A stretch of 64,000 nt of DNA from a virus: positions 1 through 64,000 of the IMG/VR virus record IMGVR_UViG_3300029258_005166. One strand, written 5' to 3'. The position numbers were made by a program, and so were the translations under genes. Below, in pieces: positions 38,136-46,096 of the stretch (positions within the stretch are counted from its first letter, which is position 1; the number at the start of each line of letters is the position of its first letter). The notes beneath the pieces are model-generated. The model saw only the letters and a list, made by a program, of their open reading frames with translations. It was not told the DNA's origin and searched no databases.

Positions 38136-39058
38136 CCAGTTTTAGATGGATAGAAGATGATCTGTCGGATTTCGTTCATATTGGGACTATCGGTTATGCA
38201 GTCGTTTAGATTGATATTTTGACCATCCCAATCATAAACCCTGGCTCCGTGCGGAAGCGGCCAAAGGAAAGTCGCTATATCCTCTATGTATTTGAACAAT
38301 TCTCCCGGATTCTCTTTTGTTCCCACCAGATTGACTTGATTTTTTTCCACCCATTCGGTCGCTGCTTTGCATTTCGATTGATCTTTATCTGGAGAGGTTA
38401 CATCTCGAATTGTCAGATGCTTGACATCGTATTGCTTACATGAGGCCTTAAGAGCAACTACTTCATCGATGCAGTCAATACCTCCTTTTACCGAGGTGAC
38501 GTTAATACGGACATCAAAATCAAGATCTCGCAGGAATTGGACCGTATCCCAAATCACGAACAACGGCTCTTTAGAACCATGCCGCATAATTTGGGCATTA
38601 CGAAAACTATCGTAATGTGTGATAGAAAGACAAATCAAATTAAGACCTAATTTTCTCCACTCACGAAGATCGTCCTCCATTTTTTGAAGTCTAATCCCAT
38701 TTGTTTGAAGTTCCACAAAGGAGAATGGGATATCATCCATGATAGGATTCGCCCATAAAAACCGTCCACAGCGTCGGGTAAATCTTCCAATCTGCCACAA
38801 CTGATAAGGCCAGAGTATCCCGTTCAATCGGTCCAGATATTGGAATACCGTATCCGGGTAAAGTGTCGGTTCCCCTTTGCCCGTAAAGAGAATGGTCTGG
38901 GCATTACCCTCTTTCGCCAACAATACGAACTTCTTAAACCTACTCCAGTTCGGGGTGGCGGGCATCTTCTCGATTCCCGTCATCTTGGAAATGCAATAAG
39001 GACAGGAAGCATTGCATTTCGCCCCACCGGTCATAACGGAACAGGAGAAGATTTCCAT
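38090..39058 (-). CDS. Radical SAM protein
   Basis: CNASCPYC, FTGKGEPTL, ELQTNG. Confidence 0.88.
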   Translation of the reverse strand: MEIFSCSVMTGGAKCNASCPYCISKMTGIEKMPATPNWSRFKKFVLLAKEGNAQTILFTGKGEPTLYPDTVFQYLDRLNGILWPYQLWQIGRFTRRCGRFLWANPIMDDIPFSFVELQTNGIRLQKMEDDLREWRKLGLNLICLSITHYDSFRNAQIMRHGSKEPLFVIWDTVQFLRDLDFDVRINVTSVKGGIDCIDEVVALKASCKQYDVKHLTIRDVTSPDKDQSKCKAATEWVEKNQVNLVGTKENPGELFKYIEDIATFLWPLPHGARVYDWDGQNINLNDCITDSPNMNEIRQIIFYPSKTGWRIRHDWKYEGAVL

Positions 39059-39441
39059 CAGAATGGCGGCTCCTTACTTTCGTGAATATGCCCACAATCT
39101 TGGCATTTCCATCGAAATACAGCATTCGGATCTCGCACAAGAAAGGTATTCAAATAGTTGCCAAGATATTTGATAAGGACAATCAATTGTTCGGTTTCAA
39201 GAGTAGAATCCGACTGTAATTCACAAGGTCTATCGCAATATTCGCCCAGACATTCGATTTTTTGCTTCCTGGGAAAAAGATCACCATTAGCGATTTCATC
39301 TTCACATTCGTCACTCCCAGGACATTGAGAGCGGCACCAGTTACAGACAAAGAATCCCTTGAGGTCAACCTTCGGAGGCCCATTCCATGAGTTTTCTTGA
39401 GATGAGGGGCAATGCTTTTCGGAGACCATCTTCATCCTCAA
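39058..39441 (-). CDS. Cys-rich zinc-finger protein
   Basis: CNWC, CQDC. Confidence 0.5.
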   Translation of the reverse strand: MRMKMVSEKHCPSSQENSWNGPPKVDLKGFFVCNWCRSQCPGSDECEDEIANGDLFPRKQKIECLGEYCDRPCELQSDSTLETEQLIVLIKYLGNYLNTFLVRDPNAVFRWKCQDCGHIHESKEPPF

Positions 39442-39646
39442 AAGGTCTTAGTGATAGAATTTGTTTGAGTCTTTTGGGGCCGATACCTTTAATTTTAGCT
39501 AGCTCGTCTTCTTTTGCTTCGTTCAATCTTGCTATCGGTTTTGGTATGCTTGGTGGCTCTGGTTTGTTTGGTTGTTCGGGCTCTGGTTCGACTAATTCGC
39601 CTACGTCTAGATTTCTTTTTTTCCAATCTTTCCAACTTGGCAGCAT
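39365..39646 (-). CDS. Helix-hairpin-helix DNA-binding protein (ComEA-like)
   Basis: LNEA...EL.KIKGIGPK....I...RPF. Confidence 0.8.
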   Translation of the reverse strand: MLPSWKDWKKRNLDVGELVEPEPEQPNKPEPPSIPKPIARLNEAKEDELAKIKGIGPKRLKQILSLRPFEDEDGLRKALPLISRKLMEWASEG

Positions 39647-39917
39647 TTTTCTCCTTTTGCTTTTGTCTTTTCTCGCAGGCTTTTTGGGCGGTTTCTTTCT
39701 TAGTATGTTCGCTGATAATCTCCCAGCATTTATTATTATTTAGTTCCTCAGCGTACCATTTATCAGCCCATTTTTGCTTCTTCGGGGCTTGCTCCCCATA
39801 CCTTATATGAGAAAAAACTACCCGATATTTCCCGCATTTCGTGCCCCAAATCTTGCGATCTGCCACTATCGTTTGGTCCTTTCGACAGCGTTTGTTCCAG
39901 ACCAGGGGTTTAATCAT
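39495..39917 (-). CDS. Basic hypothetical protein
   Basis: ATGA coupling with udg 3' end; GGAGG RBS. Confidence 0.55.
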   Translation of the reverse strand: MIKPLVWNKRCRKDQTIVADRKIWGTKCGKYRVVFSHIRYGEQAPKKQKWADKWYAEELNNNKCWEIISEHTKKETAQKACEKRQKQKEKNAAKLERLEKKKSRRRRISRTRARTTKQTRATKHTKTDSKIERSKRRRAS

Positions 39918-40526
39918 GAAATAGTGCCTCCATTAACTTGATCCCTTAGTTTGAGCAGAAGTTGAATGTCGTCCCATGTGTCCTTTTTCGCTTTGGGATT
40001 GCGAAGCAAGTATGAAGGATGATACCACACCAAAAACCAATAGCGGCTCCCAGTCTCATAAACTTTTCCTCGCAATGGTCCCAACGCTTGTATTTCTCCC
40101 AGAAAATTCTCTGCCGCATATTTTCCAAGACAGACAACAAACCTCGGATTTATTATTTCAAGCTGAAGATCAAAGATCGGCCTGCAATTCTTGATTTCTT
40201 CGGGTTTGGGATTTCGATTGTCAGGTGGCCAACATTTCAAGACGTTCATCTTTCTCAGGGTCCAAACCTCCACTTTCCAAAATGTTGTCGAGCAATTTGC
40301 CTGCCCGACCCACAAAGGCTAATCCCTCTCTATTCTCGTCACGACCTGGAGCTTCTCCCACCAACACAATATCTGCATCGGGATTTCCTGACTTCGCTAA
40401 CTGATTGTCTTCCTCGTAATTTATATTGTCAAAGACAATTTGTGTTCTGTTAGCAACTAATTCTGGACATTTTTGACATTCACAAACTTTTGCTTTTAAC
40501 AATTTAAGCATTTCTAGTTTTGTCAT
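39914..40526 (-). pseudogene. udg: Family 4 uracil-DNA glycosylase with element-supplied 5' end; frameshifted near 40250
   Basis: C..C..L..R, VGEAPG, FVGRAGKLLD in one frame; NVLKC.PP.NRNP...E..C and YHPSYLLRNP in another. Confidence 0.88.
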
Positions 40527-40531
40527 TTTGA

Positions 40532-40774
40532 TTATTCCTGCTTAAACGGTTTACCGTCATCTTCTTTCCAAAATCGTCCATTCAAAAAGACAAATTCAGT
40601 TCCTAATTGAACAAATGCCTCATCACCACGCTCATTGAAATATCGTGTGATAACATTAGGAGAATTAACTGGTCCATTGAGGGAAGGAGTAATTTTTACC
40701 TCTTGTGAAACATATAACTTATCTTTGTTGCCATCTGCATCAATTATGGGTATAATTCTCACTTCGTTTTGCAT
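40532..40774 (-). CDS. Small element-borne hypothetical protein
   Basis: 80-aa ORF in the element operon, GGAG RBS. Confidence 0.6.
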   Translation of the reverse strand: MQNEVRIIPIIDADGNKDKLYVSQEVKITPSLNGPVNSPNVITRYFNERGDEAFVQLGTEFVFLNGRFWKEDDGKPFKQE

Positions 40775-41400
40775 GAATCGTTCTCCATCTTTTTATTTAT
40801 AGCATCTACTAACTTTGTCATAGGACGCAAGGTATCAACAGGCAATACATAATTTAAGTGACCGTTGCCTTTGCGTCCTGGTTCTACGTTGCATTTTTCG
40901 ACATCTTGCTTTAAGGCAAATCCTGTCATAACAACAATTGCGGACTTCTTCTCTCGATTTTCTTGTTCAATATATGCACATACGAAAATGTCTTTATCAA
41001 GAGGAATCTTCTTTCCCCATTCATTTGTGTGATATATCAACACATCCTCACGGTATCGCATCGCACATTTCATATCAGCTTTATATCCGAAAATTAAATT
41101 GTCTTGCCGATCTCCACCACGCTTATATTCCGTATCAACAGGCAATCCAGTTAATTTACCAAAAGCCATTTGTGCTAAAATGCCAGTTCGGGCAGGTTTG
41201 TATTTATCATCTTTTGTTGCTCCTAAACCTGCTCCATAAGCCCCTGGTTTCGAGTTTCCCCAAAAATTACCTCCTTGTGAGGCTCGCTCGCATTCTTCAT
41301 ATTCTTGCCCCTCGACTTCTACTACAATACATTCTTTTTCTCTTCCATTAAATTGCCGTTTCGCAATTTGTGGCTGAAAAATCTTCGTTGGATGATACAT
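40759..41400 (-). CDS. Putative restriction endonuclease (divergent PD-(D/E)XK-like)
   Basis: G.LAQMAF..D....GGD..D......DMK pattern; directly downstream of the MTase. Confidence 0.5.
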   Translation of the reverse strand: MYHPTKIFQPQIAKRQFNGREKECIVVEVEGQEYEECERASQGGNFWGNSKPGAYGAGLGATKDDKYKPARTGILAQMAFGKLTGLPVDTEYKRGGDRQDNLIFGYKADMKCAMRYREDVLIYHTNEWGKKIPLDKDIFVCAYIEQENREKKSAIVVMTGFALKQDVEKCNVEPGRKGNGHLNYVLPVDTLRPMTKLVDAINKKMENDSCKTK

Positions 41401-42343
41401 TAAAAATCCTTTCATTAAGAACATCCTTGATTATACATCCACTAGGATAAATTAGCAATTCCATTTTTGTTCTTGTCAGCCGTTCGCCTGTCTTCTTATC
41501 TTTCAAGGCTGTAATGCTATAATTCACTCCATCAATTTCTTCGATAAATGCCCAATTATATAAATCCCTAATTTCTGGACAATCATCATAAGATAAGACC
41601 CATTGATGTTTCGTATTTTTTAATGAAGTAGCCAAACGATGATGGTCTTCCTCGGTGAAGCCATGTTGATATAAGTCATTGCCTTTCACAAAATACGGTG
41701 GATCGAGATAAATTACAGCATCGTTTTCGGTGTCATCAATAACATCAGCAAAATCCAGGCAAGTGCATCTGTTCTTTCTAATTGAAAGCCCAACCATTTT
41801 TGTATGAAGTTGGTCAATTTTCTTGCAAATATAATCAGGCGACCAACGACAATCAATTGGATACTTAACTTCATCAGTCATACCACGTCCAGCAATATTT
41901 TCTTTTTTTCGCCCACCGAGCGGGCCACCTGACATTGTGCCAAGACCTGAATATGAAATTTGATGGATTGCTAATTTCATAAAACCATATTGAGCGATTT
42001 CTTCGGCAGTTTTGGGTTTTGTTGGATTTTCCGCAGTAAGTTCTGTTTTGAAATCATCAAACTTTTTCACTGATGGCGTGAATTTATTAACCAATTTTTT
42101 CAAAAAGTCAGGATGTTGAATAACGGAAGTCCAAAGGCAGGAAATGCCTAAGTCATTATCATTGATCCATAGTTTCTTAATCAATGTATTATCTTGAAGA
42201 ACTTTCAATCCGATACTGCCACCACCAAAGAAAGGTTCTCGATATTCAAGATTATGTCCGTTTGCAATTGTGTCTAACCGAGCGGCAATTTGATTTCTTA
42301 ATTTACTTTTTCCGCCTGGATACCTAAAAAAGCTCATTGTCAT
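41348..42343 (-). CDS. Dam-like (D12 class) N6-adenine DNA methyltransferase
   Basis: RYPGGKSK, EPFFGGGS, INDND, IYLDPPY. Confidence 0.92.
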   Translation of the reverse strand: MTMSFFRYPGGKSKLRNQIAARLDTIANGHNLEYREPFFGGGSIGLKVLQDNTLIKKLWINDNDLGISCLWTSVIQHPDFLKKLVNKFTPSVKKFDDFKTELTAENPTKPKTAEEIAQYGFMKLAIHQISYSGLGTMSGGPLGGRKKENIAGRGMTDEVKYPIDCRWSPDYICKKIDQLHTKMVGLSIRKNRCTCLDFADVIDDTENDAVIYLDPPYFVKGNDLYQHGFTEEDHHRLATSLKNTKHQWVLSYDDCPEIRDLYNWAFIEEIDGVNYSITALKDKKTGERLTRTKMELLIYPSGCIIKDVLNERIFNVSSNEDFSATNCETAI

Positions 42344-42371
42344 GGTTCTCCTAGTTCTTATTATATTTGTT

Positions 42372-44444
42372 TTATACTTCTGTTGCAACGGCAACTTCTA
42401 ATTCCTTAACTGAAAGAAATTGTCCTTTCTCGTTGCGTTGTATTTTTTGCTTTTTCTTACTTTCTGATATTTTCTTACGAGTTTCTTCATTCATTGGCTT
42501 TCCCAGACGGCAATTCCTACGTCCGTTGTATTTTTCATTGATCGCTTTAAATTCTTTTGAGTCCAAAATTTGTTTCGGAATAAATGGATTGACCGAGATT
42601 ATTTCAACTCGACATATTTTACAGATGTTGTTTTTCTCGCCAGTCGTGTCAAAATGCAATTTGATTTCTTTAAGATGAGGACGTAACAAAATTGCTTTGT
42701 CTTCACCGCTCGCTTGTAATACGTCTTTGCAAAGAGTTTCAATGGTCGAAGCCATTTTCAATAAATGTTCTTTGGCACGACGATATTCTGGCACTAAAGA
42801 AACCAGATTCGCTTCTAGCACTTCAATTTCTAGTTGTTTATCCTTGATGAATTGTTTAACATCGGGGTCGTCTGCTATATCACTGAATTTCAAAATCAAT
42901 TTTTGTTTTTCAGATTTTAGATCAGCGATTTTAGATTTTACCGACTGACTGGCTTCATCAAATATTTCTTGATATGTAAGCTCGAAATAATCAGCATTGG
43001 CATCAGTTGCCGTATATTTCCAAGCACGTTTTTGGAAATTCTTGGTCTTTTCTTCGTCGGTTTCGCCAGGAAGGTTTGTCAAAATAAATCGGTACATCTT
43101 CTGGGCGACTTCGCCGCAAAACTCATTGGCATTGGATGACTTCACTTTCTCACAAAGAGCGGTATAACTTTGTCCAAGCCATTTAAGCCAATTGTCGATT
43201 ATTTCATGGATAACATCGGCTTTGACAGCACCACATTTATTACAGCGATAATTTTTTGACGGCTTCCATTTTGTGCTATTGGAGACATAAAGAATATCTT
43301 GACAATTATCACAGAACAAAAAACACTTCGCCCAAAAATCACCTAAATTAGCTCGTCGTAATCGTTTATAATCAGTTTGATTGTCTTTGAGGTATTTGTT
43401 TATTCTATCCCATTGCTCCACCGAAATAATGCGAATGGACGTTCGTTCTTCTTCGGTTAGAGGGACGACAACTATCTCGGTATTCAACCGAGCAGTTTTG
43501 GCTTTCGAGACTTGATTATCAATTGGATAACCCTTGTAGATTGAATTTGTTAATATGCACTTGATCGTCTTGGCACCCCACTGCGAACTCATACTTTTGA
43601 TGTTTTTCGCATTCAAAATACAAGCAATTTCGTGCGAGGTTTTATAGTTTGGAGCATCAGCCAGATCAAAGATTTCTTTTATAATTTTGGCACGTTCGAC
43701 ATTGATGATTTCTGTTTTTCGGTCGCCTTTTTCCATTGACGGGGCAGACGTAAGCAACACCCAATTATGACCATCTTGAACCCATTGATCGTGATATGCT
43801 TCTCGCTTGCCATCTGGTAATTCTTTCCATCGCATCAATGCGTAATTGGCACGACTTCTGGTATTTTTAGGTGGATCAGTCCAGTGTCGTCCCTCACATT
43901 TTTTGTAGCCATCGTAAATGACCTTATATTTGAAGGTTCCTTCACGATTGAACACAATCCAGTCGTATCCATAAGCACACATTTTGCCAGGGCTAGATTT
44001 TTTCTCAATGGTTTTGCGACGGGCAATTTGAGTTCTATATCCTTTCTTTTCTATTTCGGCAGAAGAAGCCAGTTGATTTTGCACTGTTCTCATTGTTGAC
44101 GCAAGATCGTTCATATCAACAATTTGTTCATCATTGGCAGTGATGATTTTTATATCCAACTGCTTCAAAGAGGTGATGAAAAACCCAATTTCGGCAGGAT
44201 TTTTGAAGCCAATTCTATCGTGATCTCGATAAATGACATATTCTGGTTTGGTGGTTTTTAATTTAGAAATTAAATTTTGTGCTTCATCGAGCATGTCCCA
44301 GCGTGGTACGCCATTTAATGTTATTTCATCAATCATTTTCCAACCCATTTTGCTAATAAACGGATCAATTATCATGTCTTGATTAGACAGTTCCATCGGG
44401 TCAGAAACATTGGATTTTCTTCTTATTTTAACACAAGTAGTCAT
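42372..44444 (-). CDS. Large serine recombinase/integrase with C-terminal NUMOD3-like motif
   Basis: RKS...Q catalytic region, DRIG, AYGY, IKCILTNSIYKG, IIS.EQWD, C..C/YRC zinc ribbon, coiled coil, MNEETRKKISES. Confidence 0.88.
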   Translation of the reverse strand: MTTCVKIRRKSNVSDPMELSNQDMIIDPFISKMGWKMIDEITLNGVPRWDMLDEAQNLISKLKTTKPEYVIYRDHDRIGFKNPAEIGFFITSLKQLDIKIITANDEQIVDMNDLASTMRTVQNQLASSAEIEKKGYRTQIARRKTIEKKSSPGKMCAYGYDWIVFNREGTFKYKVIYDGYKKCEGRHWTDPPKNTRSRANYALMRWKELPDGKREAYHDQWVQDGHNWVLLTSAPSMEKGDRKTEIINVERAKIIKEIFDLADAPNYKTSHEIACILNAKNIKSMSSQWGAKTIKCILTNSIYKGYPIDNQVSKAKTARLNTEIVVVPLTEEERTSIRIISVEQWDRINKYLKDNQTDYKRLRRANLGDFWAKCFLFCDNCQDILYVSNSTKWKPSKNYRCNKCGAVKADVIHEIIDNWLKWLGQSYTALCEKVKSSNANEFCGEVAQKMYRFILTNLPGETDEEKTKNFQKRAWKYTATDANADYFELTYQEIFDEASQSVKSKIADLKSEKQKLILKFSDIADDPDVKQFIKDKQLEIEVLEANLVSLVPEYRRAKEHLLKMASTIETLCKDVLQASGEDKAILLRPHLKEIKLHFDTTGEKNNICKICRVEIISVNPFIPKQILDSKEFKAINEKYNGRRNCRLGKPMNEETRKKISESKKKQKIQRNEKGQFLSVKELEVAVATEV

Positions 44445-44619
44445 CTCCGAATTTTCCTTTTTGATACCTTATATAGAGTATCATTTACAGAAATTTTCAG
44501 AGAAAATCCGAAAATAATTTGACCTATAAAAGAACAGTCGGAGAAGGCAGAAAGTGTCTAAAAATACCTGATGCGGGAGTGGTTTAGACCAGAAGGGTCA
44601 AGATAGCCGAATAAAACGG

Positions 44620-44748
44620 CTAATTAGAGAAGCAAGGATTGCCCCGACCTAGAACAGTCTGAATGCGAAACTCAACAAGTTCCTTACACTTCTTGCACTT
44701 GGCTATCTTCTGCCCCAGTTGTTTTAGTAGATCTTTTTTCGTCGTCAT
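44620..44748 (-). pseudogene. udg: Displaced native 5' end of udg (not in ORF track)
   Basis: MTTKKDLLKQLGQKIAKCKKCKELVEFRIQTVLGRGNP|CFSN*. Confidence 0.88.
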
Positions 44749-45517
44749 ACTTGTAATTTACCTTAAATCCATTTTCTTGGACGAAAAGGAGGGTGTTAAG
44801 CATGGAAGCTGGCATTCCCATGTCGCTCCAAAAACCAGATATGTAGTTTACGCTCATCTTTCCCAATTGGAAATACTCATTGTTGATGTCGGTGATTTCC
44901 AATTCGCCTCTGTCACTGATATTCAAACGATTCGCGATTTCATAGACATGCCGTGTGTAAAGATACAGCCCAGTTACCGCCCAATTCCCCTTAGGCTTTC
45001 TAGGCTTTTCTTCAATGTAATGTCTCTGGCCTGCCACCGTGTATACGCCAAATCGTTCGGGATCGGGAACTTCTTTTACAAAAATCGAGGCAAGCGGCGG
45101 ATCATAGCCACGACGGTGATTGATTTCAAATATATCGAATTGCTTTTTGAAAAGGTCTTCGTAGAAATTGTCGCCCAAAATGACGGCAAAGGGATCGTCT
45201 TGAGTAAAATCTTCTGCCAATTTTAAGGCAGATGCGATGCCTAATTCAACATGTGCAACATCTTGAACCTTGTAGGTAAATCTCGCCCCGAAGTTCCATC
45301 CATCCCCCAGATTTTCGATTATAGATCCGCTGTGTTCCCTACTGGAAATGACAAGAATATCTGTAATACCACTCCGAATCAACGTATTGATCGGATAGAA
45401 AATCATCGGGACGGCTCCATCATTTCCCGAATACAAAGGACACAGATGTTTGTTGGTTGCTAGGGTCGAAGGTCGCATCCTCGTTCCATAGCCACCTGCT
45501 AAAATAACCCCTCTCAT
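44684..45517 (-). CDS. rmlA: Glucose-1-phosphate thymidylyltransferase-like nucleotidyltransferase
   Basis: GVILAGGYGTR, NKHL.P, ILGDN, EEKP, RGELEITD, W.DMG. Confidence 0.9.
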   Translation of the reverse strand: MRGVILAGGYGTRMRPSTLATNKHLCPLYSGNDGAVPMIFYPINTLIRSGITDILVISSREHSGSIIENLGDGWNFGARFTYKVQDVAHVELGIASALKLAEDFTQDDPFAVILGDNFYEDLFKKQFDIFEINHRRGYDPPLASIFVKEVPDPERFGVYTVAGQRHYIEEKPRKPKGNWAVTGLYLYTRHVYEIANRLNISDRGELEITDINNEYFQLGKMSVNYISGFWSDMGMPASMLNTLLFVQENGFKVNYKYDDEKRSTKTTGAEDSQVQEV

Positions 45518-45526
45518 GTTTGCCCC

Positions 45527-46096
45527 CTAATTCAATCTAACGTCAGTTGGAACGTGATTAAGTCCCAATTGTTGCCATTTTTGTCGGCTCAAAGCCATAT
45601 AGCCTTTCTTCCATACGTCAGGTACATACATGCGATCAGGATCGGTGCCAAAGATTATGTCGAACTGGGGAACCTCTTGGGGAAAAACCAACCAACCAAA
45701 ATTGGCAATTTCATTTTCCAATTGTTCTCTGTCCCATTTGGCATAACCTGTTAAAATTCGAAAAGAGTCCTTGGAGATGACAATCTGATTCAATTTGTCG
45801 CTTGTCATGCTCCAATAGAGTCCCGGAAGAACTTCATCTTCGGAAAACTCGGGGCTTTTATGAATCGCATGCATGGGCCCAAATACAGGTCCACCAAAGT
45901 AGATCGAATCTTCCCGTTGACACTTGCAATTGGTATCGAGATCAGACCAGACTTCTTTCAGGGATTGTCCAATTGGCCTATTTAAGATAGCCCCCGTTAC
46001 CAAGTCCTCGTCTTCTCTGAGAATCAGAACTAGGCTACGACGGAACTCGTCGGGCCGCCCAGGAGAGGCAATAAGTAACTGACCAACTCGGCTCAT
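45527..46096 (-). CDS. yqgE: YqgE/AlgH family protein
   Basis: GQLLIASP, F.RSLV, G.ILNRP, GGPV, GYA.W...QLE.EI. Confidence 0.9.
   Translation of the reverse strand: MSRVGQLLIASPGRPDEFRRSLVLILREDEDLVTGAILNRPIGQSLKEVWSDLDTNCKCQREDSIYFGGPVFGPMHAIHKSPEFSEDEVLPGLYWSMTSDKLNQIVISKDSFRILTGYAKWDREQLENEIANFGWLVFPQEVPQFDIIFGTDPDRMYVPDVWKKGYMALSRQKWQQLGLNHVPTDVRLN

Follow-up and report, generated by a model that had tools for sequence, protein, structure and literature searches.

The window analysed here, a stretch of 64,000 nucleotides, is the first 64 kb of the 135,444-bp virus record IMGVR_UViG_3300029258_005166 of IMG/VR. CheckV rates the record as 25% complete, so that it represents only part of a phage genome that measures several hundred kilobases. 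Within it lies a gene for a family-4 uracil-DNA glycosylase (UDG; gene udg) that is interrupted by a 4,255-bp insert of low GC content (positions 40384-44640; GC 0.35-0.40 in the insert against 0.42-0.47 outside). The insert, a putative integrative element called the element below, carries tightly packed or overlapping genes for a large serine recombinase (LSR), a D12 adenine methyltransferase, a 221-aa protein (p221) and an 80-aa protein (p80), followed by a 49-codon udg 5' end that is fused to the remainder of the phage gene. Every feature of this finding is on the minus strand; from the native start of udg to its end they are the following.

44635..44748, minus strand: displaced 5' end of the native udg, with 38 codons as far as the G-N-P motif; 27 of 38 residues identical to residues 1-38 of P0011, an uninterrupted relative.
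44639..44640, minus strand: attL core AA, the first two bases of the Asn codon in G-N-P; putative crossover, the sole good dyad centre, inside the shared AATCC.
44614..44638, minus strand: P' arm, the att arm proximal to the LSR; matches that of LR756511 at 19/25 positions, colinear in five loci.
44604..44622, minus strand: hairpin 3' of the stop codon of the displaced reading frame; RNA fold z -3.8.
44469..44478, minus strand: conserved box CTCTATATAA upstream of the LSR start; kept in four of five aligned loci, with its 3' half alone in L004.
42372..44444, minus strand: LSR, 690 aa; Pfam Recombinase, conserved residues and fold match.
41348..42394, minus strand: D12-class N6-adenine DNA methyltransferase, 348 aa, cargo; Pfam 3.1e-21, PHROG 56 2.7e-41, PADLOC PD-Lambda-5_B 2.2e-51 and MTase_II 2.1e-39.
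40759..41424, minus strand: p221, cargo protein of 221 aa of no known family; in the place of the restriction enzyme of LR756511.
40532..40774, minus strand: p80, conserved 80-aa element protein; nine homologues at 81-93% identity.
40380..40526, minus strand: replacement 5' end for udg, which spans 49 codons, retains CxxC and has a loop of 12 extra residues ahead of G-N-P; start 5 nt after the p80 stop.
40386..40410, minus strand: P arm, the att arm distal to the LSR, whose translation forms the last part of the loop; matches the P' arm in inverted sense at 12/15 positions and its LR756511 counterpart at 19/25.
40384..40385, minus strand: attR core AA; dyad of the joined ends.
39914..40379, minus strand: phage udg body, family 4, frameshifted; two Pfam UDG pieces in different frames.

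The native open reading frame (ORF; 44748..44620) is 42 codons long and includes a CxxC pair; past G-N-P it runs through four foreign codons to a stop, all of which are contributed by the P' arm. At the other junction, the replacement N-terminus is in frame with the body, the DADIVLVGEAPG stretch, which carries the GEAPG motif. From one AA core (44640-44639) to the other (40385-40384) the distance is 4,255 bp, and AATCC (minus strand) is common to both junctions. Joining the two ends of the element by script gives a dyad of 12/15 matches whose centre is the AA of the Asn codon in G-N-P. This centre is unique, 12 other centres scoring just 1-7 matches, and only 6 of 200,000 draws of random 15-mer pairs from the window reach at least 12/15 (P ~3e-5). 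The corresponding element in LR756511, a 595-kb uncultured phage, has a dyad of 10/15 about the same AA and cores 4,371 bp apart. The attB dyad is weaker, with 5/15 matches in the window and 6/15 in LR756511, and the junctions are hybrids of attP and attB; the symmetry would place the exact crossover at AA. A first-pass annotation of the window had described the native udg start as cut at the GNP codons with the body resuming far off, which the reading frames and cores bear out, and its statements on the junctions, the 4255-bp spacing, the shared 5-bp block and the 12/15 attP all hold at the level of the letters.

The same rebuilt gene start is found on other UDG proteins. The protein search used the 101-aa chimeric ORF of the window as query among longer proteins and covers the best 120 of 4,965 matches; the full proteins of 10 relatives were retrieved, and 33 sequences were aligned (alignment A3), in which the UDG motifs GEAPG and HP[SA] and the four Fe-S cysteines are present. 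The best five among the matches listed (P0006-P0010, 197-207 aa, full length) have the element-type N-terminus with the 12-residue loop, and their N-termini are 79-94% identical to the replacement N-terminus of the window, which matches P0011 at 14 of 36 residues. Across the six chimeras, the window included, identity is 73-98% in the N-termini, but 46-62% among the five bodies that are intact. In 10/10 chimeric pairs conservation is higher in the N-terminus than in the body (means 79% vs 53%), as against 56/370 non-chimeric pairs (means 37% vs 48%), and the 118 non-chimeric pairs with comparable bodies have an N-terminal mean of 36%. In the most extreme pair, P0006 and P0007, 47/48 N-terminal residues are identical against 92/149 in the bodies, indicating that the N-terminus travels independently of its gene.

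The next match after the chimeras, P0011 (193 aa, on 9 contigs), is an uninterrupted UDG. Its first 38 residues are contiguous with a body that is identical to the two body pieces of the window at 42/45 and 74/102 residues. P0011 is thus an empty site in the closest relative at hand, and the contiguous N-terminus of the 44748 type, whose absence from relatives would have refuted the first-pass reading, is the one P0011 has (27/38). A search with P0011 in viral contigs returned just one relative, at 34% identity; in genome contigs it returned 27 cellular UDGs at 30-52% identity, P0011's own contig not being among them. The closest cellular relatives (L020-L024, from 185,579 species genomes) are metagenome-assembled genomes of Mariprofundaceae/Zetaproteobacteria, at 48-51%; this is a weak hint and does not identify the host.

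The extra loop of the chimeras sits between VF and GNP. It is present in 5 of the 33 aligned UDGs, all five of them chimeras; 27 of the remaining 28 have no insertion there. The exception, P0066, is an ordinary UDG with an unrelated 12-residue insertion before the G of G-N-P, which hints that the site tolerates insertions in nature. The structural model of the chimera P0009 (pLDDT, the predicted local distance difference test, 92.8) is that of a family-4 UDG (1l9g: template modelling (TM) score 0.87, root-mean-square deviation 1.7 A, 40% identity; 1l9g and 1ui0: TM 0.81-0.87), and confidence is low only at residues 31-50, falling below 50 at 41-44. The last codons of the loop coincide with the P arm. 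That the att arm is read as a protein loop, as first proposed from the window, is a well-supported inference, and a disordered loop of 12 residues in all chimeras is what translation of the P arm at the end of the N-terminus would produce.

The first-pass annotation had suggested a search for integrase homologues with udg 5' fragments behind them; the LSR family adjoins a udg piece broken at G-N-P in 6/6 distinct DNA loci. A distant blastn search of 39500-45500 against 50,697 phage records gave one match, to LR756511 (locus L002), at 75.5% identity and covering the element only; the LR756511 flanks have no DNA match to those of the window, and the neighbouring phage genes differ. The order in LR756511 is a displaced N-terminal ORF that ends four codons past G-N-P, the hairpin, the LSR (79%), cargo, a p80 homologue (86%), the replacement N-terminus and the chimeric UDG, which is intact there (216-aa ORF; 201 aa from the element-type start, P0009). 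L008, a 1.6-kb contig, has the same arrangement from a native N-terminus through arm and hairpin to the LSR start, and L006, a 3.4-kb contig whose LSR is intact, follows the other loci colinearly from arm to LSR start (1-700). L003 is a 254-kb record syntenic with LR756511 (a neighbourhood with NUDIX and Thg1-like genes). L004 and L005, two IMG/VR records identical over 15.2 kb, are the same DNA as L007. The 29-nt string of arm plus hairpin was found in viral contigs in the two known contigs only. Records and contigs holding the LSR family measure 85-595 kb, the IMG/VR records being an estimated 17-51% complete, and each record has one LSR and one udg.

The 690-aa protein is a large serine recombinase by architecture, and a very divergent one. 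Pfam Recombinase (PF07508) matches residues 250-354 (E 1.9e-10; 41.4 bits vs a cut-off of 21.1; confirmed on the genome), and in an alignment of 30 relatives R9, S11, R77, C378, C381 and C401 are near-invariant; Pfam gave no zinc-ribbon match. The AlphaFold model (pLDDT 83) has long helices at 409-577 between strands. It matches full-length serine integrases on att DNA (9y66, 9dxd, PhiC31 9rah, Bxb1 9iu2) with Foldseek E values of 1e-17 to 1e-13 over ~650 columns, at 12-14% identity to the solved integrases, and its N-terminal domain fits the catalytic domains of TP901-1, gamma-delta and Sin (TM by target 0.57-0.70). The model also shows a beta-rich segment of ~90 residues (~160-247) that follows the catalytic domain's long helix and comes ahead of the Pfam Recombinase match. 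Among 5.8 billion sequences, five homologues are 72-87% identical; among 1.84 billion representatives, 154 relatives have E<1e-3 and 16 have E<1e-30. A profile search of the contigs of the 185,579 (cellular) species genomes did not find the family, and a search of viral contigs with the distant relative P0126 yielded no further loci. Between the window and LR756511, the proportions of nonsynonymous and synonymous differences in the LSR (pN, pS) are 0.11 and 0.76 over 680 codons, with synonymous sites saturated. This pattern is that of strong purifying selection, under which the recombinase has stayed functional over a long time.

Upstream of the LSR start, the element holds a hairpin and a conserved box. 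The hairpin also folds significantly in LR756511 (z -4.8) and L008 (z -3.0), both with a U-tract, while in L003 the fold is not significant (z +0.7), and a generic terminator scan did not list the hairpin at 44604..44622; it is likely an insulator or terminator at this edge. The CTCTATATAA 10-mer occurs a single time in the window and is a candidate promoter of the element operon. The 8-mer CTATATAA has five copies in the window, all on the minus strand (25975, 44469, 47712, 52297 and 60020), vs 1.1 expected; one of 100 shuffles gets five. One copy is the box before the LSR, and the 8-mer may be a phage promoter motif common to element and phage. Generic scans for promoters (22 sites vs 16.6 +/- 3.9 in shuffles) and terminators (5 vs 4.6) were uninformative, and Rfam and tRNA scans of 38500-46000 gave no match.

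In the window itself, the rebuilt udg is not functional as a gene. After 101 codons the chimeric frame meets a stop (40223-40221), and the remainder of the body, from MNVLKC onward (40249-39914), is in another frame. By tblastn, residues 39-82 of P0011 align in one frame to ~40252 and residues 86-192 in the other from 40249; V-Y-I (residues 83-85) and two more bases are missing, which amounts to an 11-nt deletion near 40250. Owing to this deletion and the frameshift, the rebuilt udg is a pseudogene: a single uninterrupted reading frame is absent, while the element genes look intact. A programmed frameshift was considered and rejected, as three conserved residues are gone and not the frame alone. 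No second udg was found in the 135-kb record. Contigs from four runs were compared with the region: in three runs the whole of 39400-45300 (5.9 kb) lies in one contig each with 0 differences, these runs being perhaps the source samples and so not independent, and run X5 holds scattered pieces of the stretch only. Since the contigs of three runs agree without a difference, the frameshift is not a one-off assembly slip. The first-pass description of the replacement N-terminus was right on the in-frame fusion, the cysteines and the 12 extra residues, and missed the frameshift in the body that makes the gene a pseudogene. Upstream, the displaced udg start shares 65 nt, in a different frame, with a nucleotidyl-transferase ORF (44684..45517), and in L004 too a transferase, 41% identical, stands ahead of the udg N-terminus.

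The middle of the element differs between the full copies. LR756511 has a Dam-type methylase (6e-63) and a 211-aa nuclease of MutH/Sau3AI type (Pfam MutH 4.5e-9, PADLOC REase_II 3.3e-11), so that restriction-modification cargo is present there; in the window only the methylase is seen, and the two methylases share only 22% identity. p221 occupies the place of the restriction enzyme of LR756511, where it has no counterpart itself; Pfam, PHROGs, PADLOC and PDB sequences gave no match to it and the Atlas low-share or unnamed leads only, so that a role as nuclease would be suggested by position alone. p80 is kept, with a ratio of nonsynonymous to synonymous rates (dN/dS) of 0.03 vs LR756511. Three of its homologues are on contigs of the same sizes as those with LSR matches (26,717, 277,399 and 595,163 bp), and nothing more distant than the 81-93% homologues was found. 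It has no family in Pfam, PHROGs or PADLOC, its one match among PDB sequences (E 0.04) is not significant, the Atlas gave leads only, and a profile search of viral contigs found no further loci. We regard p80 as a candidate accessory or directionality factor. A complex prediction of p80 with LSR residues 360-645 (score 0.20, mark 0.32) gave no verdict and is used neither way. Scans of the element proteins against Pfam, PHROGs and PADLOC found no replication or capsid gene, as the first-pass annotation had said.

We conclude, with a probability of about 0.85, that a small, site-specific integrative element of huge-phage genomes is integrated at 40384-44640. That integrase islands of huge phages target udg and graft their own gene start onto it, and that these islands form a real family, is well supported. 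In the mechanism we propose, the LSR would pair attP, formed by the joined ends, with attB in the G-N-P region of udg, and exchange strands at AA. The native 5' end would be left orphaned behind the stop codon of the arm and the hairpin, and an operon of promoter-like box, LSR, methylase, p221, p80 and the partial udg would read through into a chimeric UDG, whose replacement N-terminus ends in about 10 codons that would double as the P arm bound by the recombinase. The middle of the element would be a slot for swappable cargo. Having no replication or packaging genes, the element would spread as a passenger of its phage genome and by transfer into the udg of another phage that infects the same cell. 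Excision, circle formation and attP x attB activity at present are presumed from these features, and excision could swap UDG N-termini. The full picture, of serine-recombinase 'homing islands' that jump between co-infecting huge phages into the G-N-P of udg, with the grafted N-terminus and its arm as a tolerated loop and exchangeable restriction-modification systems serving as weapons or addiction modules in contests between phages, is one to which we give even odds.

Several observations weigh against an active mobile element. Complete elements are found at 2/6 distinct DNA loci, the others being decayed or rearranged. L004 (6700-8330) is a decayed, internally deleted copy, in which the native N-terminus is frameshifted and the udg body has stops; its LSR, twice frameshifted, breaks off at residue 409, right on the AA core before the udg body, so that the deletion spans from within the recombinase gene to the att core, and it could have been made by the recombinase at a pseudo-site or by deletion at a microhomology. 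The two frameshifts and the end at residue 409 led us to reject a reading of this copy as a recombinase-only element. In L003 (5900-7810) a standard native N-terminus, arm and hairpin are followed by an LSR consisting of an inverted C-terminal third, and no udg body was found anywhere in the 254-kb record. In L006 the core is TT when read along the LSR, and the body of udg that follows is inverted and lacks the CxxC N-terminus; this body is 74% identical to that of the intact chimera P0010, and the arrangement may be an insertion in opposite orientation, an inversion or an assembly chimera. Between the window and LR756511, the phage-side half-sites agree at just 14/25 and 13/25 positions, so that each recombinase would need a different attB. 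The Pfam Resolvase match of the LSR stays under its cut-off (1.8e-3; 18.8 bits vs 23.3), and the family profile has no match among PDB sequences. Large serine integrases require a directionality factor for excision, and no such factor was identified in the element. No excision joint or circle junction occurs in the contigs of any of the 4/4 runs, which, contigs being unable to reveal rare forms, does not count as evidence that excision is lacking, and the saturated pS between the two full copies gives no sign of recent transfer from that pair.

This saturation, the decay or rearrangement of four of the six loci, the single LSR and single udg per record, and the want of an empty-site or circle contig would also fit a fixed relic, that is, one ancestral entry whose mobility was lost and which is inherited vertically as a partly domesticated block of restriction-modification and variant UDG. 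We consider this improbable. The element N-termini are much more alike than the bodies in 10/10 chimeric pairs (P0006 and P0007 above all), and P0011, the closest relative of the window udg, is uninterrupted. The flanks of the full copies have neither common DNA similarity nor common gene neighbours, the cargo was exchanged while the ends were kept, and both LSR and p80 are under strong purifying selection.

Two further explanations fare worse than the relic. The insert might be a regulatory switch that the phage keeps, timed excision restoring the native udg in the manner of skin and SPbeta; bacterial LSR elements that excise from coding genes are a precedent, and in the window, L002, L003 and L008 the displaced start of the native gene remains an unbroken ORF, cysteines included. 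But a replacement N-terminus is supplied, and five chimeras are full length, so that expression needs no excision; moreover, the cargo is restriction-modification and not regulatory, and copies decay along with udg. We think a switch very improbable. Least credible of all is that there is no element, the LSR being the phage's own lysogeny integrase and the udg 5' duplicate an unrelated duplication or an assembly artefact. The one LSR per record suits an integrase of the phage, and the window does come from a metagenome assembly. A free phage genome should, however, have one attP and not two junctions around a 4.3-kb block in a split gene, and the family was not found in the cellular species genomes. 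As to an artefact, the same junctions recur in the separately deposited 595-kb genome and in other assemblies, and the contigs of three runs agree base for base.

Full-text literature searches (main texts, without supplements) found no description of such an element. PMC12595487 describes bacterial tyrosine-integrase islands that carry type II restriction-modification and are transduced by jumbo phages. If the present reading is true, an island that uses a huge-phage genome as its chromosome adds a layer of parasites of parasites, and a further route by which restriction-modification systems move between phages. One stretch of DNA would serve as both recombinase-binding site and protein loop, a dual coding that would explain the conserved UDG insertion; the decay in several copies, the window included, shows that the gene can be lost in spite of the repair. 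The recombinases are far from those characterised and come with readable attP, attL and attR, which makes them candidate new integrase tools, and, should the homing-island reading be true, natural integrase/att pairs with an attB in a conserved coding motif.

The closest known enzymes are the serine integrases of temperate phages (PhiC31, Bxb1, the Listeria A118/LI type and TP901-1), which have the same domain order of catalytic domain, recombinase domain and zinc ribbon with a long coiled coil, and whose att sites have an imperfect dyad symmetry about a 2-bp core that is itself not palindromic. The conserved serine, the zinc-ribbon cysteines and the att symmetry are likewise seen here, whereas the present family is tiny and divergent, takes a phage genome as recipient and has one attP arm translated. 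Known site-specific islands lie in bacterial chromosomes, and the known parasites of phage genes are introns, inteins and transposons. Among the former, islands that target tRNA and tmRNA genes, and SCCmec, which enters rlmH by means of the serine recombinases CcrAB, duplicate the end of their target gene. Like them, the element has no transfer genes, a recombinase at one end, a conserved gene as target, a supplied copy of the displaced part and cargo of defence type. Unlike them, since they reside in bacterial chromosomes and mostly at 3' ends, it replaces the 5' end with start codon and expression signals, sits in a huge-phage replicon, and adds to the protein a 12-residue loop encoded by the att arm. 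LSR elements in bacterial coding genes that are excised on cue, such as skin in sigK and SPbeta in spsM ('active lysogeny'), resemble it in lying within an ORF that precise excision would regenerate; in those the gene is broken while the element is integrated, whereas here it is rebuilt in the integrated state. Homing introns and inteins of phage genes would share its ecological logic, with a conserved site, limited damage and spread in co-infection, but mechanistically it is quite unlike them: nothing is taken out of RNA or protein, there is neither splicing nor a homing endonuclease, and the end of the gene is replaced instead.

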